Origin: a virus
Direction: 5' to 3' (one strand)
DNA: 11,682 nucleotides
Virus genome (UHGV): UHGV-0087143
Made by a program: the position numbers and the translations under genes
The notes under the pieces: generated by a model
What the model was told of the DNA's origin: nothing
Databases searched by the model: none
The model's input: the letters and a program-made list of their open reading frames with translations, nothing else
Part shown: in pieces, positions 1 to 11,682 of the stretch
Layout of the letters: every line of letters begins with the position of its first letter
Position numbering within the stretch: position 1 is the first letter of the stretch

Positions 1-219
1 CTGATCCTGATCGTCTTGCCTTATTGAATATGATTGCTATTTGCATTTAAAATCGAGACCTGGTTTTTCTACTGAAATGATTATGACTTCAATGACCCTT
101 GAATGAAGTCTATTCGGTTTTCTTTAGATGTTCGCCTCACATAATCTTCAAGTGATGTTCCTTACATCTCCCTAGAGCGTTAAGATAGTTAACTGATTGA
201 GTTTTCAGGGTATGAAAGG

Positions 220-885
220 ATGAGCAACACTACCGACATCTTAAGCACGATAGCTGATATCACTATGGCTGGTACTGCTGTATGGGCTGCATTCAAAGCT
301 AATGATTGGTTTAAAACCAAGCGTCTTGAGAGTGCTGAAAACTTCTATAAAGAAGTACACAATCTCCATAAACGTTACTATTCAGCTATCCAATACGTTG
401 AGGATTCAAGAAGAATATTTGATAGTCAGTATGGGTTGCATTCGCCAATATCTGAACCTAAAGACAAGTCATTGCAATGGGGGGTTAAATCGAACTCTTA
501 CAAAATCATCGCTGAACTAGATTATCTGGCATCGTCACTACAAATGATGGATGCAATGGGTAACAAACTTAGCCCTAAATCGGCTTCACTGGTTAATGAT
601 ATGATGGAAGCACATGGACGATTCTGTAATGATGTGATGAACTTCAATGACTCAGTTTGGAAGGTTATAAGGGCAGGTATAACTGAAGAGAACATCCCAC
701 ATACGCGAGGCTATGTGAACGGCGATTACATGACTATCCTTACCAGTATGGATGAACCTGTAAGAATATCTTTTAGGTTAAAAGAAATCAGTTTTAAAGA
801 TTTTTACCTGCATGAAACTACTATGCAGTCAGTAATAACGAGGCTGAAATCGCTTATCGCCAGAACAGGTAAAAACAGGACATAA
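220..885 (+). CDS. Hypothetical protein, 221 aa, with N-terminal hydrophobic segment (ILSTIADITMAGTAVWAAF)
   Basis: Long ORF from ATG 220; weak SD-like AGGG 9 nt upstream; no domain recognised by eye. The 302-520 track ORF is nested in another frame and treated as spurious. Confidence 0.6.
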   Translation: MSNTTDILSTIADITMAGTAVWAAFKANDWFKTKRLESAENFYKEVHNLHKRYYSAIQYVEDSRRIFDSQYGLHSPISEPKDKSLQWGVKSNSYKIIAELDYLASSLQMMDAMGNKLSPKSASLVNDMMEAHGRFCNDVMNFNDSVWKVIRAGITEENIPHTRGYVNGDYMTILTSMDEPVRISFRLKEISFKDFYLHETTMQSVITRLKSLIARTGKNRT

Positions 886-897
886 ACAGGTTAGTAC

Positions 898-1015
898 CTA
901 TGCAATTTAAAGGCATTTTCCCAAGTATCTATGCAATCCTACACAGATTCTATGCAGTATCGATATAGTCTCTTTTTAGCGTAACCTATTGAAATATATA
1001 GAGAATCTATGAAGT
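898..1015. repeat. Cluster of four CTATG(C/A)A(A/G)T motifs (898-906, 929-937, 950-958, 1007-1015) plus a diverged ~22-bp direct repeat (965-986, 1011-1032)
   Basis: Read directly: cCTATGCAAT, tCTATGCAAT, tCTATGCAGT, tCTATGAAGT, all same strand; atagtctctttttagcgtaacc vs gaagtctcttttcagggtaaac. Confidence 0.5.
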
Positions 1016-1496
1016 CTCTTTTCAGGGTAAACTGTATCGTGTTAGTCGTCCCTCTCCAGACACTACATACAGTGCTATATACAGGGATATATAACGATAT
1101 ATAGTTGTTTGACCACTACCAATATTCCCTCAAAGTGACTATCAAGCTGCTTAACAGTTTCCCATGTGAAAGTTAGGAGGTGATGGTTATAGTTCCTTCG
1201 TAGTTCCTCTTAAAAAATCACTTGCAGACACCTTAATCTCTATACAGATTTCATGTAGAACACGATTAGTACGTAGAAGAGTCATTATGTTAAAAACACA
1301 CTGTGTTTATATCAGTACTGATTTATAAGGGTTTTGTGTATTGGGTGATAAGAGGCTATACAGCACCTTGAGAGCATGTCTTCTAAGTCATTGACATATA
1401 AGGTCACAGAAGTTTGTGTCTGTTACAGAGAAAACTGGACAGGACTTCACAGAACTATAAAATGTTACAGCTATTGATAGGTGAAATCTTCTTGAT

Positions 1497-1553
1497 AGAT
1501 GCTATGAAGTGTGATGAAGGCTTCTTGAGGTGGAGTTAACAGATGCTATGAAG
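1497..1553. repeat. Two perfect copies of 13-mer AGATGCTATGAAG, 44 bp apart (1497-1509, 1541-1553)
   Basis: Exact 13-bp direct repeat; shares the CTATGAAG core with the 898-1015 cluster. Confidence 0.6.
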
Positions 1554-2028
1554 AAAGTCAATAGTTGGTTATAGATATTTTAACTGCTTTTGCAAAGGGG
1601 GGTGCTATATCGTGAATCTGGGGTACTTAACAGCCATCAATCATGAGGTAGATTAGGGGTTGGTACAAGCCCAACTAACCGAATCAACTGTGTAGATATT
1701 TTTTAAGATTATCGGTGAAGGGGGAATGCAGAGGGGGTACTATGATTTTTATAAAAATTTTCAGAAGCCAAATAACCATTGTACAGATTTTATACAATCC
1801 TACCAAGCCTCATAGTTGATTCGATTAGGTGATTCAGTAATGAATTACTTCATGAAGCTAATCTCATAGAAAGCTCTGTAGCGAGTTTTAACCCCATTTT
1901 TAGGGGTAGTCTATAGGGATGTACCACCCACCTTAAAATAAAGGGGTAAAATCGCTTAGAATGCGTTACAGAGCGTCTGAGAAGCTATATTCACAGATTT
2001 TACTAAAGTCTCAGACTTCTAAGTAGTC

Positions 2029-2338
2029 TTTTTAACAGGAGGGGTTCCCCTATGGTCACATATCCCCTCTCTCGTTTAGTGGCCCTTGATAGCACCCGAT
2101 TAATAACCTAGAGAGTATGCCTGTAAAACTTCTGTATCAGGTCAACTATAAGAGGTCTGGATATTACCTTGTAAGATTCCTGGTAGTGATTATGCAGAGG
2201 GCTTGATAAGAGTGTTTAACGGGAGGAAGAGATATCTTTTTAACAGGAGGGTTCTTTCTCATGTATCACCCTCTCTTCCCGCTAAGTAAGCTACACAGAC
2301 CTAGAGAACATGCCTTCACAGCATCTATATCAGGTCAG
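2029..2338. repeat. Two diverged ~100-115-bp modules (about 2029-2145 and 2237-2338), each beginning TTTTTAACAGGAGGG
   Basis: Shared blocks in the same order: TTTTTAACAGGAGGG, CCCTCTCT(C)..TTAG, CCTAGAGA(G/A)(T/C)ATGCCT, TCT(G/A)TATCAGGTCA. Related CTCT(C)TCCCG(C/T)T(A/T)AG boxes recur at about 2727-2740 and 2910-2923. Confidence 0.6.
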
Positions 2339-2425
2339 ATTTAGAGGGTTTTGATAGAGTCTGTAAAGGTACTTGACAGGTAACTATGAAGTTGCTAGGA
2401 AGAGCTGTTTAACGGGAGGAAGAGA
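2213..2425. repeat. Perfect 20-bp direct repeat TGTTTAACGGGAGGAAGAGA (2213-2232 and 2406-2425)
   Basis: Exact match read in sequence; a related GTTTAACGGGGG lies at 3239-3250. Confidence 0.8.
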
Positions 2426-2847
2426 ACCATGAAACCGAAGGTAGGTTCTGTCTTAACAGTGAAGTCTTAAGAAATGTCTTGAGAGTTACCTAAACAAGCC
2501 TCTTAAGTAAAAGACAACACTCCAGAAAGAGTGTCTGTTTAACAAACTTCTCAAAAGCTCTTAAAAAGTCTGTTAAGAGAGGGCTATGTGAACATATCAT
2601 ACCATTTTGTCAATGCTTTTGTCTTTGACCTAAATCAATAAAATGTATCGTTTGATATGGTTTTAAGCAAGACGGCTAAAAAAATCTTTTTAGAGGGGCG
2701 CTTCGCTTGGGGTCACTATGTTCTTTCTCTCCCGTTAAGAGGGAAGTTACAGGGACATTTCAAAGCCCTGATAAGGTAAGCCCGATGATAACAGAAACAG
2801 AGGGCAAAACCACTTATCAACACTGTGAACGAATAACGTAAAGGGCT

Positions 2848-2884
2848 GGTTAAGAAGGTCGGTTAAGAAGGTCGGTTAAGAAGG
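2848..2884. repeat. Tandem array, about 2.8 copies of 13-bp unit GGTTAAGAAGGTC
   Basis: Copies at 2848-2860 and 2861-2873, partial copy 2874-2884; related TTAAGA(A/G)GG boxes at about 2464, 2570, 2735 and 2932. Confidence 0.8.
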
Positions 2885-2950
2885 GAGCTTCCCTTTCTTG
2901 GGTGTCGCTCTTCTCCCGCTTAGTGGATAGCTAAGAAGGCTTGAAGTTAT

Positions 2951-3126
2951 CTGTGAAGGTACTGGACAGTCTTATATATTGGGTGATTACAACTCGTTGA
3001 AAAATAAGTATTTTTAGAAATCACTGTTAAGGTTACAGAGTCAACTGTGAAGAGACTTGTCAGTTCTCTATATTGGGTGATTACAACTTATTGAAAAGTA
3101 AGAACTTTTAGAAATTACTGTCAGAG
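2951..3126. repeat. Two copies of a ~82-bp direct repeat (2951-3032 and 3045-3126), period 94 bp
   Basis: Identical 20-mer core TATATTGGGTGATTACAACT at 2975-2994 and 3069-3088 with ~85% identical flanks; partial third copy TATTGGGTGAT at 1339-1349; CTGTRAAGGTACTTGACAG-like heads also at 2361-2379. Confidence 0.8.
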
Positions 3127-3240
3127 AGGTGAATACTTGATAGATACAGCTTTCCGGTTCTGTCAAGCTATTTTTTAATAGATAGCACAAAATGCTAAAG
3201 ATACCCCTATACCATCTCGTACAGGGGGGGTTGAAGGAGT

Positions 3241-3429
3241 TTAACGGGGGTCTGTGTGGTTATCTGTTCTGGTCCTGTCCTTGAGGTCAAACGACCATTC
3301 ACGACCAAACAATCTGAACACGATAAACACTCTGACGATGAAATAGCGAAGTAGTAAGCCTGCAATCAGCCCAACACCTCCACCAGCCCATACATCAGGT
3401 GACCCCAGCTCAGGAGGGAGATTTACCAT
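3241..3429 (-). CDS. Small predicted membrane protein, 62 aa (one hydrophobic helix GGGVGLIAGLLLRYFIVRVFIVF, charged C-terminus)
   Basis: Track ORF on minus strand, divergent from the 3633 gene; weak SD GAAGG upstream; candidate promoter upstream. Could still be a chance ORF. Confidence 0.3.
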   Translation of the reverse strand: MVNLPPELGSPDVWAGGGVGLIAGLLLRYFIVRVFIVFRLFGREWSFDLKDRTRTDNHTDPR

Positions 3430-3514
3430 TCAATGTACCTTCTGTGTGCAATGCAAAAAAACATGTGACCATTCTCGATAGCCACGCTTCATATTTTCCC
3501 TCTCCCATAAACCC

Positions 3515-3544
3515 ATTATACCATAAATGTTAATAAATTGTTAA
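3515..3544 (-). promoter_or_regulatory. Candidate sigma70-type promoter (minus strand): TTAACA, 18-nt spacer, extended -10 TGGTATAAT
   Basis: Minus-strand -10 TATAAT is the complement of 3515-3520, TG of the extended -10 at 3522-3523, -35 TTAACA is the complement of 3539-3544. Confidence 0.4.
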
Positions 3545-3551
3545 AAAATAC

Positions 3552-3580
3552 TTGACATTAGTCTTTGAAACTGCTAGTAT
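3552..3580 (+). promoter_or_regulatory. Candidate sigma70-type promoter (plus strand): TTGACA, 17-nt spacer, TAGTAT
   Basis: TTGACA at 3552-3557 and TAGTAT at 3575-3580 with exact 17-bp spacing, ~50 nt upstream of the 3633 start codon. Confidence 0.5.
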
Positions 3581-3632
3581 TGTATATATAGTTAACAGGA
3601 AATTAACAAACACTAAGAGGGTCAGAATATGA

Positions 3633-4187
3633 ATGCAGGATTCAGAATTTAGAGCGATGCTTCAGGCATCAAGAGAACGCAACAAGCACAACTCCTACGC
3701 TTACACAGACACCCCCACCAGCTACGAAGTACCAGCCTTTTCCAAAACCGAACGTAAAAACATTGAAGCGGTCATTCGTAGCATTACGCCACGAGACAGA
3801 TTTATGCCAGTACGCAAAGAAAAAGAGAATACTTTAAAAACTTTCTTGATGAGCTTTGATTCTTACGAGCAACTACCATCAAAAATTGAAGATGTAATTA
3901 TCGGTACTTGTCGCAGTCTTGGAAGAGATAATTATCACCGGAAGGTTTTTTATTTACTGCGAAGTCTTGATGAGATTAGTTCAAGCACAGTGACGAGCCA
4001 TCTTCAAAGACAAGCAACCAGACTTAGCTACGAATTACCAAGTGATAAATATTGCGCTAACTTAGCCACTATTTGCATGAAAGTTATTGAGACAATTAAT
4101 CATCATGCGGAAGTTGGAAATATCAGCCTTACAACCAGTGAACCAGACTTTGAATTTGACGTATACGCACAAGCAGAGGAATTTTAA
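3633..4187 (+). CDS. Hypothetical protein, 184 aa, first gene of a rightward operon
   Basis: ORF with SD AAGAGG (3615-3620) upstream of ATG 3633; no domain recognised. The antisense track ORF 4062-4442 is treated as spurious. Confidence 0.65.
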   Translation: MQDSEFRAMLQASRERNKHNSYAYTDTPTSYEVPAFSKTERKNIEAVIRSITPRDRFMPVRKEKENTLKTFLMSFDSYEQLPSKIEDVIIGTCRSLGRDNYHRKVFYLLRSLDEISSSTVTSHLQRQATRLSYELPSDKYCANLATICMKVIETINHHAEVGNISLTTSEPDFEFDVYAQAEEF

Positions 4188-4188
4188 A

Positions 4189-4476
4189 ATGGAAAATAAA
4201 CACACACTAACCAGAGTTACAAAGACAGCCTTTGAAGAACTTAACCGAATCAAAAACATTACAGGTCTGCCACACTCAGCAGTGATGAAGCTTGCAATTA
4301 ACCGTGATATTAACGAACAAGATTTGCTTAATAGTCGCTTAGAGGCTGCAAGACACCATATCAGGATTAAGCAAGATGACCTTGATAGTCTGAAATCTTT
4401 AAATGCTTTTGGACTGGATTTAGCAAGGTTGCTAAGCATCAAAATTCACAAGTTAAAGTTAGAGATGGAGGTTTAA
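4189..4476 (+). CDS. Small putative DNA-binding protein, 95 aa, ribbon-helix-helix-like N-terminus plus C-terminal coiled coil
   Basis: Start chosen at ATG 4189 (GAGGA SD 8 nt upstream, directly after the upstream stop) instead of the overlapping in-frame track start 4087; N-terminal TRVTKTAFEELNRIKNITGLPHSAVMKLAI resembles a strand-helix-helix fold. Motif-level only. Confidence 0.5.
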   Translation: MENKHTLTRVTKTAFEELNRIKNITGLPHSAVMKLAINRDINEQDLLNSRLEAARHHIRIKQDDLDSLKSLNAFGLDLARLLSIKIHKLKLEMEV

Positions 4477-4862
4477 TGTATGACTTTTATAAACATCGTG
4501 ACCATTTGGTAAGATTTGACGGTAAAGTCTGGAAAGACGTAACACAAACCAATAAACCCAAGTTTACCCACCAGCAATTAGCCTCAAGATTTGATATCTG
4601 GACTGAAGCACAAAAAGATAATGGTGATTTCGAGTTTATCAGGGGTTTTGATTATGCTTACGAAGACGACCTTAAAGACGCCATTAAATTAATTGAGAAT
4701 TTCAACTCTATTAAAAATGGTGACAAGCACAAAGCCAATGGCAACAGATACGATAAAGATTTAATCATTGATGCAATCACCAAAGGACAATCACAAAGTT
4801 ATATTTCTGAGAAATACGGTTTATCACGCAGTCAATACTACAAGATTAAAGCGTCTGTGTAA
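4476..4862 (+). CDS. Putative helix-turn-helix DNA-binding protein, 128 aa
   Basis: Start ATG overlaps upstream stop (TAATG, translational coupling); C-terminal IDAITKGQSQSYISEKYGLSRSQYYKIK looks like a resolvase/sigma-region-4-type HTH. Confidence 0.6.
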   Translation: MYDFYKHRDHLVRFDGKVWKDVTQTNKPKFTHQQLASRFDIWTEAQKDNGDFEFIRGFDYAYEDDLKDAIKLIENFNSIKNGDKHKANGNRYDKDLIIDAITKGQSQSYISEKYGLSRSQYYKIKASV

Positions 4863-5000
4863 GCCTGTGAGAATGAGTGAGACTCAAAGATGAGCTACCC
4901 TATTACTAAGGTGTCTCACTCCCTCTGTAACCCGCATGGTTACTGGCCTCAGAATGGCTATTTTGGCAGATTTAAGATGTGTTTTTAGAGGATTTTAAAA

Positions 5001-5324
5001 ATGAACAATTACCCGCTACAGATTTTCGTTGATAGCGACACCGCTCTGATGATTCAGGCTTTCAGTGATTCCGGTGTATCAATTGACTTTGACAGGCTGT
5101 TAAGGCTAATGGCTAATAACTCAGAAACAATTGAAGATTTTATTCAGTCGGTGGAGTTTAACGAGCCTCGAATGATGCTACCAATTAAAGACAGCAACAT
5201 GAAAAGATTGGTTATCGAGCAAACGAACAAATACAGCGTTAGCCCTGAAAGATATCTCAAGGCAGCTATAGCAATTTTGTACGCTGACAATATTTTGGTG
5301 ACGGATTCGAAGGTGGTGCATTAA
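5001..5324 (+). CDS. Hypothetical protein, 107 aa
   Basis: ORF from ATG 5001; no domain recognised. Confidence 0.55.
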   Translation: MNNYPLQIFVDSDTALMIQAFSDSGVSIDFDRLLRLMANNSETIEDFIQSVEFNEPRMMLPIKDSNMKRLVIEQTNKYSVSPERYLKAAIAILYADNILVTDSKVVH

Positions 5325-5389
5325 TGGAATTGGTGATTATCTGTTTTGTATTGATTGGTATGATTGCAGGTGCATCTATTAAAGTATAA
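5324..5389 (+). CDS. Possible 21-aa hydrophobic peptide (MELVIICFVLIGMIAGASIKV)
   Basis: ATG overlaps stop of the 107-aa gene (TAATG); strong SD GAAGGTGG 7 nt upstream; entirely hydrophobic. Below the track length cut-off; speculative. Confidence 0.25.
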   Translation: MELVIICFVLIGMIAGASIKV

Positions 5390-5454
5390 ATGTTACCAAT
5401 CTGTTAAAAAGCTGTTGACAAATAACCTTAAGCATGACATAATTTTAATTATGG

Positions 5455-5481
5455 GAGAGTAATTCTCTCTTATATTTTTTT
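5455..5481 (+). terminator. Candidate rho-independent terminator for the 3633-5389 operon
   Basis: Stem GAGAG/CTCTC (5455-5459 / 5465-5469), loop TAATT, followed by TATATTTTTTT. Confidence 0.4.
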
Positions 5482-5659
5482 CAATAATCCGATGGATGGA
5501 TGGATATTCTGAGTTGGTGAGGTATGTTCTATACCGAACATTCTGAAAGGTGCAATGCTTTTCGCTACATGGCCTCTTATATAACCTGAGAGGTCATCTC
5601 GAAAAGTACTCTTGTTCATTCGTTTGAATCCTTCAGAAGTTTTAATTTCTTCACCTTAT

Positions 5660-5702
5660 GAATAGCCCTTTATAAGAAATTATCTAGGGCTATTCAGTTT
5701 TT
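5660..5702 (+). terminator. Candidate stem-loop/terminator: 10-bp stem GAATAGCCCT / AGGGCTATTC, 16-nt loop, then AGTTTTT
   Basis: Perfect 10-bp inverted repeat at 5660-5669 and 5686-5695; T-run only on the plus strand. Confidence 0.35.
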
Positions 5703-5776
5703 AAAAAGCATACTTGGCAAACCGCCTTTTAAGCCTCTTCTAAGTTCGAGGATGTCAGGTGTGCTTTTTAAAAACT
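5696..5776. promoter_or_regulatory. Perfect 15-bp inverted repeat pair AGTTTTTAAAAAGCA (5696-5710) / TGCTTTTTAAAAACT (5762-5776), 51 bp apart; operator-like
   Basis: Exact reverse complements; each contains the palindrome TTTTTAAAAA; ends 36 bp upstream of the 5812 start codon. Confidence 0.4.
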
Positions 5777-5811
5777 GAAACATAAATTATCTTAGAAGAG
5801 GAAAGGTATTA

Positions 5812-6516
5812 ATGGCTATCCGTGATGAAAATGAAATGATTATTGAAAGCCGACCAAGTGCACTTGATATTCACGAATTAACTTTGCGTGAATCTTTTGA
5901 TAGAGCTTGGCGGGAATCACACGAAGTAAATAAAGGTCCATATATTCCACCAGAACCACTCGAGATTCCAAGAGTTGAAATTGATTTTTCTATGAACGAA
6001 CAGTGTGAACTTGATTTGAAGTTGAAGCTACAACGCCGATATTTCCAAGCTATTAAAGACTCTCAAGAAGCAATGAGAAGTGTTTACGAGAAAATTCAGT
6101 CCAAGCTTGAAGACGAAATCGACGAAATGGCTATTTTGATGGAGCTTCAAACCAATTCTTATGCTTATTTCTCTCGACTAGACCGTGACGGTTGGGGGTA
6201 TGACCCTGTAGAGATTGGTAAAGTGATTGCAGATTTACCAGAAGGTCAAAGGGTTATTCGTACGGAAAGGGCCATCAGAGCGCCACATCGACTGTCTCTA
6301 ATTGTTGCTGATAAATCACAAGCTGAGCTTGAAGAAATTGCCAAAGAGAAACTGATGAAAGCAAGAGAAAATGAGATTAATTTGCTGAAATCAAGACTGG
6401 CTAAGCTGATTAGTGACCATCAAGCGCTGGCTAAGGAGTACCGTCAAGAGTTGGCACAGATTATCAGCTTCAATGATTTTCTGAGTGTTCCACGAGAATT
6501 TAGCAAGGCTGTTTGA
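5812..6516 (+). CDS. Hypothetical acidic protein, 234 aa, with C-terminal coiled-coil-like region
   Basis: ORF with SD GAGGAAAGG upstream of ATG 5812; no domain recognised. Confidence 0.65.
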   Translation: MAIRDENEMIIESRPSALDIHELTLRESFDRAWRESHEVNKGPYIPPEPLEIPRVEIDFSMNEQCELDLKLKLQRRYFQAIKDSQEAMRSVYEKIQSKLEDEIDEMAILMELQTNSYAYFSRLDRDGWGYDPVEIGKVIADLPEGQRVIRTERAIRAPHRLSLIVADKSQAELEEIAKEKLMKARENEINLLKSRLAKLISDHQALAKEYRQELAQIISFNDFLSVPREFSKAV

Positions 6517-6539
6517 TTATGAATTAAAAGAGGTGATTA

Positions 6540-6752
6540 ATGTTTGAAGAACGTTTAGAGACTATTCGGTCTGTTTGCGAAAGACTCCAGCTACAACCAA
6601 ATAGACAAAAGCTACGAATTAAGAATAACCGTCATTACATCACCTCACACAAACCAAAAACACGCAAGATTCCAAAGTGGTGTCTTGATAAATTACCAAG
6701 TGATTGTCAGATTGTCGGTGAAGATGGTAATTATTATCTTGTCAGACATTAA
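6540..6752 (+). CDS. Small basic protein, 70 aa (three Cys, Lys/Arg-rich centre)
   Basis: ORF with SD GAGGTG (6530-6535) before ATG 6540; function unknown. Confidence 0.5.
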   Translation: MFEERLETIRSVCERLQLQPNRQKLRIKNNRHYITSHKPKTRKIPKWCLDKLPSDCQIVGEDGNYYLVRH

Positions 6753-6802
6753 AAAAGAATTGGTTGGGTATATGAGATAGGTTCTATCGAATCTATAGTA
6801 CG

Positions 6803-6844
6803 GGGAGAGATTATCGATATTATTCGGTAGTTTCTCCCTTTTTT
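6803..6844 (+). terminator. Candidate terminator: stem GGGAGA/TCTCCC around a 24-nt loop (containing palindrome TATCGATA), followed by TTTTTT
   Basis: GGGAGA 6803-6808, TCTCCC 6833-6838, T6 at 6839-6844; loop unusually large so strength uncertain. Confidence 0.4.
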
Positions 6845-6893
6845 GTATATGAGGATAGTCTTCTATCCGAAGTCTATGAGGTGAAAAATATGA

Positions 6894-8978
6894 ATGAGCA
6901 AATTTACAGTTGATAGTTTTATTGTTGAGCTGGGCTTCAGTGAAAACGTTATTAAGGGATTGCAAAGAGTTGAAAAGGCAGCTTTGCAGTCAGCACAAAG
7001 AATTGAACGTAATTTGAATAGAGCGTTTAAGGTCGATACCAAGCAACTTGACAGCAATTTAACGGCTTCTTTAAAGTCAATGGAAGGGAAAATTAATAAG
7101 ACCTTTGACAAGATTGAGCAGCGTCTTAAAAACACTAGAGCGTTTAAGATTAAAACGGAAATTGAGGATACTTTAAAGCCACTTAGACAGCCAAGACAGC
7201 CACGAATTAGCGGCAACAGAGCAATCACAGCAGCTTATTCAGCGAATATGAGCAAGTTAAAGGGCTTTGACCCTATTTTGCAGAAATACATCAAATCTCA
7301 GTTTTACGGGCTATCTGCTAAAGCTGGGTCAATGGATAATTCAAAATTCAATGAGAAGTTAGCTCAGCTAAATGCTTCAGTCAGAGAAGCAATCACTAAA
7401 GCCAGAGGTCATACATCCACCAGCAAAAACAATCACAGTGAAAATGCTTCAAATGGTTTAGATGTATTAGCTACAAGTGCAATCAAAGCAGGTACAGCCA
7501 TTTATAGTTTTCAGACAGCCTTAGAAGCTTATAGGAAGGTTATGGAAGTTGGTCTGAAAAAAGAAGCATCACAACGAGCGGCACAATTCGTTTTAGGTGA
7601 TGAAGGTGCTAAACGAGCTACAGAATTTGTTAAGAATCTTGCTGATAGTAGTGGTGTAGACCAGATTGAAACATTAAGCAGTTTTGCTAAGTTTTCCGCT
7701 GGTGCTGGTGATATGAATGCAGACCAGAAAGAATCCTTATTTTCTAATGTGATTGGTACATCCCGACTAATGGGTTTAAGCACTGATGAGATTAACGGGA
7801 TTCTAAAAGCTTTCGAGCAGATGGCGAGCAAGGGCAAGATTCAAGCTGAAGAATTACGCGGTCAGTTAGGGGACAGAATGGCAGGTGCTTTTCAGTTATT
7901 TGCCAGAAGTCTTGGGATGACTACAGAAGAATTAGACAAGGCCATGAAGGACGGTAAGGTTCTTTCTAAAGATGTTCTTCCTAAAGTATCCGCTGAAATG
8001 GGAAGGATGATTGATAAAGCTGGTGGATGGGAAAAGATTATTAACTCTACTCAGACGCAGTTAGGCCGCCTTTCTAATTCATGGAATAATAATCTGGCCT
8101 TAATGTTCGACGGTTCACAGGAAGGTTTAACAGACTTTACAAGGTCACTGACTAATTTACTTAATTCACTAGGTGGTCAATCTAAAAATCTTGGTGAACA
8201 TTTTGGCGACTTGATGAAAAGCATGTCAAACGGTGTTGATGATTTAACCACGATTAGCTACCGAGCACAGGGATTCTTTGACAGAGTGACCCTTGCTTAC
8301 AGAGAATTAAATGACACTCAAAAAGCTGTAGCTGATGGTATCGCAAATGGCCTGTTAAGTGCATTAAAGGGGCTTGCTGGTATAGTCGCTGTAAGGTCTG
8401 GGATTGGTGCTGTAGGTGGTATCTGGAACTTAATTAGGGCTATTTCCACGCTTGGAAATGTAGCAAATACAGCAGCAGGAAGAATCAATTCACGTTCTGC
8501 TGGTAGTGTTGAAGGTGGTAAAGGAAAATTATCTGTAGCTGATGCAATTACCAAAGTAATGATTGTCGGTATGGCAACTGATGTGATTAACTCCATTGTT
8601 AAACCACTCTATGAACGCCAGATGAGTAAGTCAGATAATCCAATTGATAAAGTTGTAAGGTCAAAGGTGGAACCCACAGACCAAGCATTGACTGGTGACA
8701 TGAACTCTTTAGCTGCTGTTTTATGGGCTATGGTTCAGGGCAAATCAAAAGATGTTCCACAGTTTTCACCGGAAGCATTAAATAATCTGAAAGGTCGAGT
8801 GGAAACATTCACACAAGATTTAAAGGTTATCAAGCCGTCAGTAAATATTCAGCCTCAGACAATCAATATCACAACTCAGACGGTACTTGATGGAAAGGTT
8901 ATTGATGAAAGAACCACATCGCATATTAATCGTATGCAGGAAGATACCTTGATTAGCTCAGCTTACCCAGAGGAATAA
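6894..8978 (+). CDS. Phage tail tape measure protein-like, 694 aa
   Basis: Internal segment ...GLSTDEINGILKAFEQMASKGKIQAEELRGQLGDRMAGAFQLFARSLGMTTEELDKAMKDGKV... matches the conserved tape-measure core (ELRGQLGERLPGA-type motif); helical N-terminus and Gly/Ala-rich hydrophobic segment (GIANGLLSALKGLAGIVAVRSGIGAVGGIW) typical of tape measure proteins; SD GAGGTG (6878-6883) before ATG 6894. The four antisense track ORFs inside it are treated as spurious. Confidence 0.8.
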   Translation: MSKFTVDSFIVELGFSENVIKGLQRVEKAALQSAQRIERNLNRAFKVDTKQLDSNLTASLKSMEGKINKTFDKIEQRLKNTRAFKIKTEIEDTLKPLRQPRQPRISGNRAITAAYSANMSKLKGFDPILQKYIKSQFYGLSAKAGSMDNSKFNEKLAQLNASVREAITKARGHTSTSKNNHSENASNGLDVLATSAIKAGTAIYSFQTALEAYRKVMEVGLKKEASQRAAQFVLGDEGAKRATEFVKNLADSSGVDQIETLSSFAKFSAGAGDMNADQKESLFSNVIGTSRLMGLSTDEINGILKAFEQMASKGKIQAEELRGQLGDRMAGAFQLFARSLGMTTEELDKAMKDGKVLSKDVLPKVSAEMGRMIDKAGGWEKIINSTQTQLGRLSNSWNNNLALMFDGSQEGLTDFTRSLTNLLNSLGGQSKNLGEHFGDLMKSMSNGVDDLTTISYRAQGFFDRVTLAYRELNDTQKAVADGIANGLLSALKGLAGIVAVRSGIGAVGGIWNLIRAISTLGNVANTAAGRINSRSAGSVEGGKGKLSVADAITKVMIVGMATDVINSIVKPLYERQMSKSDNPIDKVVRSKVEPTDQALTGDMNSLAAVLWAMVQGKSKDVPQFSPEALNNLKGRVETFTQDLKVIKPSVNIQPQTINITTQTVLDGKVIDERTTSHINRMQEDTLISSAYPEE

Positions 8979-9212
8979 ACAATGTTAGAGCTACTAATAT
9001 TTATTGCCACACATGGCAACCTATTAATCTTTATCTAGTATGACGACTCAACTATGAATAGTCGAATGCTACGTGAAATCTCCTGAACAGATATACCCAC
9101 TGAAAAATAGAATTTACGTAGCTCACGCTTAACAGAGAAAATACTTATATATCAAAGGCTTGGTTAAAAATGACTGAAATACACTAAGTCTTTGAAATCA
9201 AAGGAGAATTTA

Positions 9213-9986
9213 ATGATTTACTCTAATCAGATTCGTTACAGTGGCAAAGATGGCATCTATTTCCACTTAAGAGATAATGTAGATGCCTTCTTAACTTTAT
9301 CAGCAACTGAGAACATGGAATTTGATAGCCCTATGCAGGTGACTACACAGAACATGCAATCAGGGCAAACCGTCACAGATAATGTGCAAAGAGCACCCAG
9401 AACAATCACTATTAGTGGTGTCGTTGTAGTTGGCTATGAAGGAAGCTTATTATTAACTCGTCAGGGTCAATTAGTAGAAAACTTCATCGACACCCTTGAA
9501 AGCTGGCGTGACCAGAAGCAGATTATTTCGGTCATCTGTAAAGATGGTATCAAGATTGATGACTCCATTATTACAAGTTTTAAAGCCTCTAAAGATGTTG
9601 GTATTTCAAATGGTCTAAGAATCCAGCTAACTTTTCAGGAAATTAACTTTAAAGCTGTTGTGGGGCAGACTGATATCTCGGCTGCAACTGGAAAAGCCGC
9701 GACTACGAATGATGGTGGTGTGACCAGTAAAAAGAATGCGGGTAACGTGACCACTGAACGCAATAACGCACCTATGCTGATGTGTCAGGAACTGTACAGT
9801 TACTCAGCATCTGAGCTATCTGATGAAGCGCTAAGGGTCCGTAGCAATTGCTCTAAAAATGTCACGGTGAAAGATGGTGTAAGCACCTTCACAGCCTCAG
9901 CTAATGAGCAGGCTTCAAAAGTGCTTAAGTCGGGTAATGCTTTACGGAAGTTTTCTGTGAATCCGAATAAGAAGGGCACTTATTGA
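9213..9986 (+). CDS. Hypothetical protein, 257 aa, downstream of the tape measure gene (possibly tail-associated by position only)
   Basis: Start chosen at ATG 9213 (SD AAGGAG 6 nt upstream) instead of the in-frame track start at 9192, which is a TTG codon; no domain recognised. Confidence 0.65.
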
Positions 9987-9990
9987 GACA

Positions 9991-10013
9991 TAAAAAGGGG
10001 CTTCATAGCCCCT
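9991..10013 (-). terminator. Rho-independent terminator for the recombinase gene, shared between convergent genes
   Basis: GC-rich stem AGGGGC/GCCCCT (9996-10001 / 10008-10013), 6-nt loop; on the minus strand the stem is followed by a U-run (complement of A-run 9992-9996); lies between the 9986 and 10019 stop codons. Confidence 0.6.
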
Positions 10014-10018
10014 GAAAA

Positions 10019-11539
10019 TTACAGTTGATAAGCGTCAATATCCAGTAGCTCTTTATCAGCAATTTCAAAGATTGGTGACCCATCATTTAGCGGTAACGGG
10101 TTTGTAGGTATGGTGATTTCAGTGTCGTTCTGTAGCGTTACAGTTACCGAATCCTTACCCAATGTAAGCCCTTTTAGATGTTTGGACAAAATCAACTGAC
10201 ACTCGACACGACCCGCTTTAGTTGTCAGGTCAATATCTTTAAGCTGGGGTAGTTCCTTATCAGTGAGTGAAGCCTTACGCCTCATGTTATCAATAGTAGT
10301 CTGTAGTTCTGTGCGCTTCTGGTTAAGTCCCTTCACCTGTGCTTTCAACTCTGTAATGTCATCCATTTCAAGAAGTAGGGCGGTAGCTTTCTTGATTCTG
10401 GCTGTGACAATTTCAACCTCATGCTGTAGAGATGCAATCTTCCCCTCTGCTTCTCCATCATTCCCCACGTCAATCATCCCCAGAAAATTATCAATCATCC
10501 ATCGGTCAAACGGTTTACGCTTCAACGGTGGAACATCACAGCGACCGTCTAAGTGGTTATTGCACCTGTAGACCCCTGCATACTTATTCTTGGTTCCGGT
10601 AGGATGGACACTAGCCCCACACTGACACCGGAATAATCCCTTGAAGATGTTAATCGTTAATGGGTTATCACTTGCAGGTGTGCGGCCTTTACGATTCTTG
10701 TCGAGAATCTCTTGAGCTTTATTGAACGTTGCAGCATCTATAGCGGCTTCGTAGTAGTTCGGTATAGCGGGGCGGTCATTACGCTGTGATGCTGGTAACG
10801 TGCCTATTGTTGTCTCCGACCTTAAGATGGTGCGTACAGAATGGACGCTAAACCCATTAGCATCTTTACGGCGACTAAACGACTTTATACCGTTGCTTTG
10901 AAGGTGACGGGCGATGTTATGCAGACTTTCACCACTTAGCAGCAGCTTGAAAATCAGTCTTACAGTCTCAGCGTGTTCATTGAGTTTGAGAGTATCGGGG
11001 TCAATCCATCCGGGAACCATCTTTGTTAAACGTTGTTTACCAGCAAGGGCAAGTTTTGCACGTTGTTTCCACTTCTCGCTAACACGGAAAGACTTCTGCT
11101 TACTCTCCTGATGCGCTAGGTAGCTTTTAACCCGCTGAATGATTGAGATTCCTAAATCATCGGATAGAGCATCCCTTGTGTAGATTAGCCCATCCTGTAG
11201 AGTGTGAATCTCGATACCATGAGCAATAATGCGATTCATCAAGGCTTCTGTTTCAAGATGCTCTAATCGGCCTATACGGTCGATACTCTCAACTAGCAGA
11301 ATTGTACCTCCTGGAAACTCCCCAGCCTCAATACGGGCTAACATGTCACCAAACTGACCAGTAAGGTGTTTACCTTTGTAACCGGATAGACCCTCATCAC
11401 TGAAAGACGCTACTACTTGAGCATCGCTATTCTTCTTCAACCATTGTTTGAACAGGTCGTTTTGTCGTCTGGTTGAATCAGCACCTTCAGCACCTTGTGT
11501 GGCTGATGAGAATCTCAAGTATGTTATTACGGTTCTCAC
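10019..11539 (-). CDS. int: Large serine recombinase (serine integrase), 506 aa
   Basis: N-terminal resolvase-type catalytic domain with the serine nucleophile motif (YLRFSSATQ) and downstream LLVESIDRIGR; central recombinase region; Cys-rich zinc-ribbon-like segment (CQCGAS...YRCNNHLDGRCD); C-terminal coiled-coil-like region. GTG start with SD GGGAG 9 nt upstream. Antisense track ORFs 10263-10571 and 10914-11111 treated as spurious. Confidence 0.9.
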   Translation of the reverse strand: MRTVITYLRFSSATQGAEGADSTRRQNDLFKQWLKKNSDAQVVASFSDEGLSGYKGKHLTGQFGDMLARIEAGEFPGGTILLVESIDRIGRLEHLETEALMNRIIAHGIEIHTLQDGLIYTRDALSDDLGISIIQRVKSYLAHQESKQKSFRVSEKWKQRAKLALAGKQRLTKMVPGWIDPDTLKLNEHAETVRLIFKLLLSGESLHNIARHLQSNGIKSFSRRKDANGFSVHSVRTILRSETTIGTLPASQRNDRPAIPNYYEAAIDAATFNKAQEILDKNRKGRTPASDNPLTINIFKGLFRCQCGASVHPTGTKNKYAGVYRCNNHLDGRCDVPPLKRKPFDRWMIDNFLGMIDVGNDGEAEGKIASLQHEVEIVTARIKKATALLLEMDDITELKAQVKGLNQKRTELQTTIDNMRRKASLTDKELPQLKDIDLTTKAGRVECQLILSKHLKGLTLGKDSVTVTLQNDTEITIPTNPLPLNDGSPIFEIADKELLDIDAYQL

Positions 11540-11611
11540 GGTGATAAACTCCCATGCAATTGATTATCATTTAAAGATGAACTTATAAACGTTATGGCTA
11601 ATGCTACAATG

Positions 11612-11640
11612 CCGAATAGCTACAATACAATGACCCTTGA
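11612..11640. other. Candidate recombinase attachment-site junction (right end), partner of 90-117
   Basis: CCGAATAG, 8-nt spacer, CAATGACCCTTGA, ~75 bp upstream of the recombinase start; sequence beyond 11640 turns GC-rich (CCTCGCCGCTTCCCCTGGCCGACG). Confidence 0.3.
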
Positions 11641-11682
11641 TTTACCTCGCCGCTTCCCCTGGCCGACGTTACTTTCGGTCTG

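Follow-up and report, generated by a model that had tools for sequence, protein, structure and literature searches.

The right end of an integrative element at the start of Escherichia coli tonB, a probable attachment site of an Ec03-type large serine recombinase

Introduction

Positions 11593-11660 of the 11,682-nt DNA analysed here (UHGV virus genome UHGV-0087143; the whole stretch is called the window) constitute, with high confidence, the attR site of an 11,525-bp integrative element, which occupies 103-11627 and was inserted by its own recombinase. The site is composed of the P arm, the core and the B' arm. Because the integrase and its attachment sites have already been published as Ec03, this finding is correct but not new; the promoter separation of tonB by the element, and the likeness of the element to a Felixounavirus satellite, were not found in the literature searched.

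Classical serine integrases such as those of Bxb1, phiC31, A118 and SPbeta recombine simple attP and attB sites, which have an imperfect dyad and a non-palindromic 2-bp crossover. They integrate in one direction, and excision needs a separate directionality factor.

Results

Empty site and host target

The insertion is delimited by the empty site of E. coli DH1, in which window positions 1-102 correspond to positions 312-413 and window positions 11628-11682 to positions 401-455. The two flanks are contiguous there and overlap by the 13 bp CAATGACCCTTGA. Because this empty site joins 1-102 to 11628-11682, the intervening 103-11627 (11,525 bp) is an insertion, and the exact joining of the flanks bears out the proposal, made in a sequence-only reading of this DNA, that an att junction beside the integrase marks the element-host boundary. 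All strings that this reading had named are present at the coordinates it gave. CCGAATAG, the distal motif of the P arm, lies on the plus strand at 11612-11619 and is followed by the 8-nt spacer ctacaata (11620-11627) and by CAATGACCCTTGA, the right copy of the 13-bp core (plus strand, 11628-11640); the left copy of the core is at 90-102 on the same strand. CAATGACCCTTGA occurs twice in the window and CCGAATAG three times, while 0.01 and 0.15 copies, respectively, were expected from shuffles. The CCGAATAG copies at 110-117 (minus strand) and 11612-11619 (plus strand) form an inverted pair, one at each end of the element.

The boundary itself had been placed at 11640/11641, where the sequence switches to a GC-rich flank, and has to be moved leftwards: host identity begins at 11628, the 13-bp core is common to element and host, and the exchange would have occurred at the AC of 11633-11634. 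The jump in GC content from 33% in 11540-11627 to 59.5% in 11641-11682 is real, but it is simply the entry into tonB coding sequence (57% GC). Since 11630-11680 translates to MTLDLPRRFPWPTLLSV, which is the N-terminus of TonB with its ATG at 11630 (MTLDLPRRFPW...), the GC-rich flank is tonB.

We searched the query 11380-11682 against 5,426 complete E. coli genomes and obtained full-length matches in 225, each with one chromosomal copy. In the genomes with an empty site, among the matches listed, the match starts exactly at query position 249, which is window position 11628. The integrase end adjoins an annotated 720-bp tonB in all 8 complete genomes whose annotation was fetched, and RefSeq places tonB at this site in both occupied and empty genomes. 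The contigs encoding exactly this recombinase are E. coli chromosome; their integrase side carries trpEDCBA, yciG, yciF, yciE, ompW, yciC, yciB, yciA and a 239-aa gene, which is tonB in the RefSeq annotation, and yciI is upstream of the left end in the longer contigs. The extension of the sequence rightwards, which the earlier reading had offered as a check, leads beyond 11682 into tonB, yciA, yciB, yciC and ompW with no further element DNA. It also settles which kind of target is used: a gene, namely the first four codons of tonB, and neither an integron repeat nor an intergenic site. The window holds no tRNA or tmRNA target.

On the left side, 1-94 (plus strand) is host DNA identical to DH1 312-405 and represents the B arm of attL, that is, the yciI-tonB intergenic region up to the crossover. 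On the right side, the start of the tonB coding sequence lies at 11630-11682 (plus strand; from translation and RefSeq), and its part from 11635 is the B' arm of attR. A stub frame, ATG ACC CTT GAA TGA (MTLE*), remains at the left junction, and the right junction restores the complete tonB reading frame. In-frame ATGs at 11594 and 11609 precede the tonB ATG with no intervening stop, and some gene callers therefore give a 251-aa TonB with the 12-residue N-terminal extension MANATMPNSYNT; RefSeq keeps the 239-aa form.

Recombinase and its published counterparts

The gene adjoining this site (10019-11539, minus strand) encodes a large serine recombinase of 506 aa, an allele of Ec03 according to Pfam, PHROG and sequence identity. 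The start codon of its ORF is GTG in the window; relatives have ATG there. Three Pfam domains, PF00239 Resolvase (4-162), PF07508 Recombinase (187-282) and PF13408 Zn_ribbon_recom (298-342), were found, and the protein is assigned to PHROG 95, integrase, with an E-value of 1e-81. It shares 476 of 506 residues with Ec03 (WP_096306698.1; 94% identity, 30 amino-acid changes) and is 62% identical to Kp03 over the 399 residues compared. Among solved structures, phmmer gave no match to the integrase at E 1e-3.

Ec03 comes from E. coli NCTC9082 (NZ_LR134080.1) and is contained in a list of experimentally characterised large serine recombinases, which also contains the 13-mer (Durrant et al., 2022, Nat Biotechnol 41:488; PMC10083194, supplementary file 4). 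It was published as a tool in human cells, where it integrated into landing pads (PMC10083194, supplementary file 5). We found no mention of tonB in the supplementary files of that study (PMC10083194). The published Ec03 attB agrees with our reconstructed attB at 105 of 105 positions and the published attP with our reconstructed attP at 108 of 112; inside the core region of attP, the present allele differs from Ec03 by one base (G instead of A at +10). The natural context of Ec03 is also the same, since its gene adjoins tonB and is followed by baseplate-like and tape-measure genes. From the 94% identity, we predict that the present allele catalyses recombination between attP and attB.

In Kp03 of Klebsiella pneumoniae, AC is the native core dinucleotide according to a core-substitution assay (PMC10083194, Supplementary Fig. 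2f legend), this core can be exchanged, and 26 bp of attB are enough (PMC10083194). Kp03 uses the same target, the K. pneumoniae tonB start (CAATGACCCTTGATTTACCTCG), and an attP of the same form, CCGAATAG-13-AC-13-CTATTCGG, which differs outside CCGAATAG, including TGCTACCTC in place of TGCTACAAT. By protein identity and by the same attB and attP, the recombinase of the window and both its sites fall within the tonB-start clade of Ec03 and Kp03.

Architecture of the attachment sites

Joining of the right end of the element to its left end gives the reconstructed attP ...TGCTACAATG-CCGAATAG-CTACAATACAATG-AC-CCTTGAATGAAGT-CTATTCGG-TTTTCT..., in which two inverted 8-mers, CCGAATAG and CTATTCGG, are each separated from a central AC by 13 nt. 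This symmetry becomes an inverted repeat only once the two ends are joined. When dyad centres were scanned over +/-26 nt, AC was the best centre of attP with 16 of 26 complementary positions against 11 for the runner-up, and about 5% of shuffles reached at least 15. The proximal half-sites of attB around the same dinucleotide, TCAATG|AC|CCTTGA, are nearly palindromic. In the tonB half-sites inspected by eye, a CCGAATAG-like motif for the zinc-ribbon domain, displaced 5 bp inward in attB, was represented only by a weak CGA match in B'.

The P arm of attP survives in attR at 11593-11632 (plus strand), where it was recognized as a conserved block and by the published Ec03 attP. The block reads TATG.CT.ATGCTAC.ATGCCGAATAGCT..AATACAATG and covers invariant columns 64-92 and 95-103 of our cross-clade alignment of the region between integrase and tonB (A1). 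The P' arm is at the left end of the element (97-123, plus strand), contains CTATTCGG at 110-117 and lies inside the published Ec03 attP. The element of strain ET120 is identical to the window up to 123, and its homology resumes at 862; because the homology ends there, we bounded the P' arm at 123, which makes the half-site about 27 bp. This length is a typical dimension of large serine integrase sites.

Diverged relatives locate the exchange more closely. Those with recombinases of 57-74% identity keep the geometry of distal motif, 13 nt, AC, 13 nt and distal motif, and in the clade of about 60% identity (P0034) the dyad centre is also AC, with 18 of 26 positions. The two ends of an element of this clade (L013) read ...cttCAATGAC|tattggttgtagtCTATTCGG at attL and CCGAATAGctcaaataCAATGAC|ccttgattt at attR, with only CAATGAC common to both. 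In a second clade (P0043; L032), attL reads CAATGAC|cattgag...CTATTCGG and attR CCGAACAGcttcaataCAATGAC|ctttgat, and the common stretch is CAATGACC. Because the two ends of these relatives have only this stretch in common, the exchange should fall within CAATGAC(C), the right edge of which coincides with the symmetry centre AC. From the symmetry, the relatives and the Kp03 experiments, we infer that the crossover is at or just left of AC, and that the crossover dinucleotide is AC at 11633-11634 in attR (plus strand) and, within the left core, AC at 95-96 in attL (plus strand). The AC core of Kp03 agrees with this assignment independently. The junction combines a three-domain recombinase encoded at the edge of the element, flanks that are contiguous in empty genomes, and an imperfectly inverted attP of about 50 bp.

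The 13-bp direct repeat could also be read as the target-site duplication of a transposase or as the overlap region of a tyrosine integrase. It is long for attP-attB identity of a serine integrase, and in some genomes PGAP gives the label 'transposase' to one protein of the element (5812-6516), but we give this reading a negligible probability: among the proteins of the element, Pfam recognizes neither a DDE transposase nor a tyrosine recombinase, all genomes examined, from several genera, have the insertion at one and the same site, and the 13-bp sequence was present in the element before insertion, as seen in the published attP (PMC10083194). Furthermore, the shared stretch shrinks to 7-8 bp in relatives that keep the inverted geometry around AC, which is unlike a target-site duplication. 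A tyrosine-integrase att site was tried as a separate candidate and rejected, with no PF00589 in the element and with GCTACAAT repeats that are at chance level and not conserved.

These GCTACAAT repeats, at 11603-11610 and 11619-11626 (plus strand; exact string matches 16 nt apart), had been taken as local symmetry of the kind found in recombinase binding sites. That interpretation was given up, because such a pair does not exceed chance and relatives do not keep its second copy; the relevant symmetry is that of CCGAATAG and CTATTCGG. At least two copies of GCTACAAT appear in 13 of 200 shuffles of the whole window, and an 8-mer direct repeat within 30 nt appears in 4.7% of local 101-nt shuffles and in 9.5% of the 101-nt windows of the element. 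In relatives the second copy becomes GCTTCAAT or GCTCAAAT by changes in its two completing bases, and the first becomes TGCTACTAT in the L012 clade and TGCTACCTC in Kp03. Because both copies vary in relatives using the same site, the repeat is incidental. That two exact 8-mers inside the att region are accessory, arm-type binding sites of the recombinase is thus very improbable. Large serine integrases act on simple, imperfectly inverted sites of about 40-50 bp and are not known to use arm-type direct repeats. The 26 bp of attB with which Kp03 works (PMC10083194) also argue against such sites.

Control region between integrase and tonB

A promoter-like site of native tonB, TTGAAT-18-TAAAAT, is at 24-53 in the left flank and now lies 11.5 kb upstream of the gene. 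Since tonB is cut off from its own promoter, it would have to be transcribed from the right end of the element. The site at 24-53 points into the first ORF of the element (220-885), which is on the same strand with no terminator-like site in between, and this ORF may have been placed under the captured tonB promoter and may be expressed under iron limitation. The ORF encodes 221 aa with no family match, and is absent from the otherwise similar ET120 element (L011).

Genomes of the EHEC O111:H8 type support transcription of tonB from the element end. All that is left of the element there is a 291-nt integrase remnant and the attR region, which adjoin an intact tonB, and the 100 nt directly preceding the tonB ATG match those of the window exactly. 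In one of these genomes, E. coli RM9131 (L010), IS elements and a type III effector island (nleG, espM1, nleH) have taken the place of the rest of the element.

The same genomes can be taken as a sign that the island is a fossil, fixed and no longer excising, whose right end has been kept only as the carrier of a tonB promoter: the element has decayed in them, yet the 100 nt preceding tonB are unchanged. In addition, no attP junction was found in any collection searched. The excised or circular junction is absent from IMG/VR and from JGI metagenomes, the integrase itself is absent from IMG/VR, and the 24 longest contigs with the left-end gene contain no attP junction and are all integrated next to yciI. 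We nevertheless consider a fossil unlikely, because the window encodes a full-length integrase with 94% identity to a demonstrably active enzyme, and both att arms are intact and essentially identical to functional published sites. Many unrelated lineages of E. coli, as well as Citrobacter, also carry the element, with an end that is 87-100% identical, and the occurrence of the same core element with a different integrase at wrbA points to recent mobility.

The putative divergent control region between integrase and tonB covers 11540-11592, as delimited from alignment A1 and from loci L031 and L032. Three candidate tonB promoters, all consensus matches only, are TTGATT-18-TATAAA (11560-11589), TGCTACAAT (11602-11610) and GTGATA-18-TATCAT (11541-11570); a promoter scan tool reports only the last, as a weak site. 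TGCTACAAT resembles an extended -10 promoter element, and the attP of Kp03 reads TGCTACCTC at its place. Assignment of a single tonB promoter was dropped, as none of the three candidates is conserved in every clade.

Another motif in this region, A.GCAA.TGATT.TCA at 11554-11569, is conserved across clades and precedes the integrase start by 14-30 nt; its minus-strand sequence is GATAATCAAT in the window and GATAATCATT in the clades of 57-62% identity. The overlapping positions 11556-11574 (minus strand) match the Fur consensus at 13 of 19 bases, which puts this match in the top 9 among some 23,000 window positions and is also reached by about 4% of the 88-nt windows of the element. The native tonB promoter region, which we take to be the site of the known Fur box, scores 11-12 of 19. 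The core GATAATCA(A/T)T is kept in the 57-62% clades, and many Ec03-type copies read GAGAATCAAT, in which the C weakens the Fur match. Besides its likeness to a Fur box, the motif looks like a -10 hexamer and could as well be that of the integrase promoter.

Cargo and sister elements

Besides the integrase, Pfam recognizes only two proteins of the element, namely a tape-measure protein of 694 aa (6894-8978) and a Dit-like protein (9213-9986). The latter has 78% amino-acid identity to gp74 of the virulent Felixounavirus wV8, and over 510 nt the two genes are 95% identical at the nucleotide level. In wV8 the tape measure (742 aa) is encoded just upstream of gene 74; the tape measure of the element is about 30% identical to it, and the order of tape measure and gene 74 is the same in element and phage (L029/L030). 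This kinship is suggestive of a satellite or parasite of Felix O1-like phages. For seven small ORFs, PADLOC, Pfam and PHROGs gave nothing significant, and no candidate recombination directionality factor emerged from these searches. An inverted repeat of 27 nt with 89% complementarity and a 33-nt loop is at 5693-5779, just upstream of the ORF 5812-6516. Weak sub-threshold Rfam matches (rhtB and a microRNA family) at or beside it are probably due to chance, and Rfam over the whole window gave nothing credible.

The region 886-3206 (about 2.3 kb), as well as 3430-3632, has no ORF of at least 50 codons, yet its conservation in sister elements, among them that at wrbA, is 70-95%. Repeat modules abound in it: two of 83 nt (2945-3027 and 3039-3121), two of 58 nt (2106-2163 and 2299-2356), the 20-mer TGTTTAACGGGAGGAAGAGA, which recurs exactly at 2213 and 2406, and three copies of GGTCGGTTAAGAA near 2848-2886. 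Possible roles are those of an iteron-bearing origin, a packaging region or a source of non-coding RNAs.

The sister element at wrbA is found in E. coli FAM21845 (5900-17650; L017). It has the same core, corresponding to window positions 899-9986, and a different, Ec04-type recombinase of 547 aa. It is inserted in the 5' end of wrbA and supplies a new Shine-Dalgarno/ribosome-binding site, start codon and N-terminus, so that WrbA starts with MSVKARILVLYYS instead of MAKVLVLYYS. Together with the likeness to wV8, this suggests a putative family of satellite-like islands that would interact with virulent Felix O1-like phages and swap modules for integration into gene 5' ends. The length of 11.5 kb, the integrase, and the recognition of only tape-measure and Dit-like structural genes are consistent with a satellite.

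Recombinases of 57-74% identity are located immediately upstream of tonB in other Enterobacteriaceae together with quite different cargo. The elements with recombinases of 57-60% identity (L013-L016 and L032) carry unrelated cargo of about 6-8 kb with a small resolvase, DUF4145 and helix-turn-helix proteins, which may be a defence island.

Discussion

The integration would proceed as follows. The recombinase would join an attP of about 54 bp to an attB spanning the tonB start codon; dimers bound to attP and attB would synapse, and the catalytic serine, predicted to be S11 in the motif YLRFSS, would cut all four strands at the central AC, leaving a 2-nt stagger. Half of the complex would then rotate by 180 degrees before the strands are religated. 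Synapsis, staggered cut, rotation and religation are the established mechanism of serine integrases. Because attP also has CAATG to the left and CCTTGA to the right of AC, a 13-bp direct repeat is found at the ends of the element, and the tonB frame is therefore rebuilt intact at attR. Excision would need a recombination directionality factor.

The three-domain enzyme is shared with Bxb1, phiC31, A118 and SPbeta. Compared with these classical systems, the attP-attB identity of 13 bp is unusually long, and the crossover falls within the opening codons of a host gene that is rebuilt by the element.

PLE of Vibrio cholerae is a satellite of the virulent myovirus ICP1 and carries a large serine integrase. 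The element in the window is likewise a small island in which a large serine integrase occupies one end and capsid and terminase genes are absent. It also resembles PLE in its large conserved stretch with no ORFs and in signs of genetic exchange with a virulent myovirus, here the 510 nt shared at 95% with wV8. Unlike PLE, it carries tape-measure and gp74-like tail genes, and any dependence on a helper phage is putative. Our literature searches on tonB with serine recombinase or satellite, and on Felixounavirus satellites, gave no description of the element or its target gene.

It is possible, though at present rather doubtful, that the insertion affects the host, with TonB expression uncoupled from its iron-regulated promoter and set by the control region of the element, with the ORF 220-885 captured by the tonB promoter, and with the element being an undescribed Felixounavirus satellite of E. 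coli, comparable to PLE and ICP1 in Vibrio, whose integration modules are those known as Ec03 (tonB) and Ec04 (wrbA).

The present analysis adds the natural background of a published tool: the tonB start codon is the target of Ec03, Kp03 and their relatives, all of which rebuild the gene, and this targeting spans E. coli, Citrobacter, Klebsiella and other Enterobacteriaceae. The enzyme-site pair is already in the genome-engineering toolbox as Ec03, and the example demonstrates that a true boundary of a mobile element can be found from raw sequence. About 4% of complete E. coli genomes have tonB preceded by DNA from the element. Iron uptake, several colicins and phages such as T1 and phi80 depend on TonB as their energy transducer. 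A change in its expression, should the element cause one, could have effects on iron physiology and on the sensitivity to phages and colicins. The cargo points to a possible satellite of virulent Felix O1-like phages, a group used in phage therapy and biocontrol.
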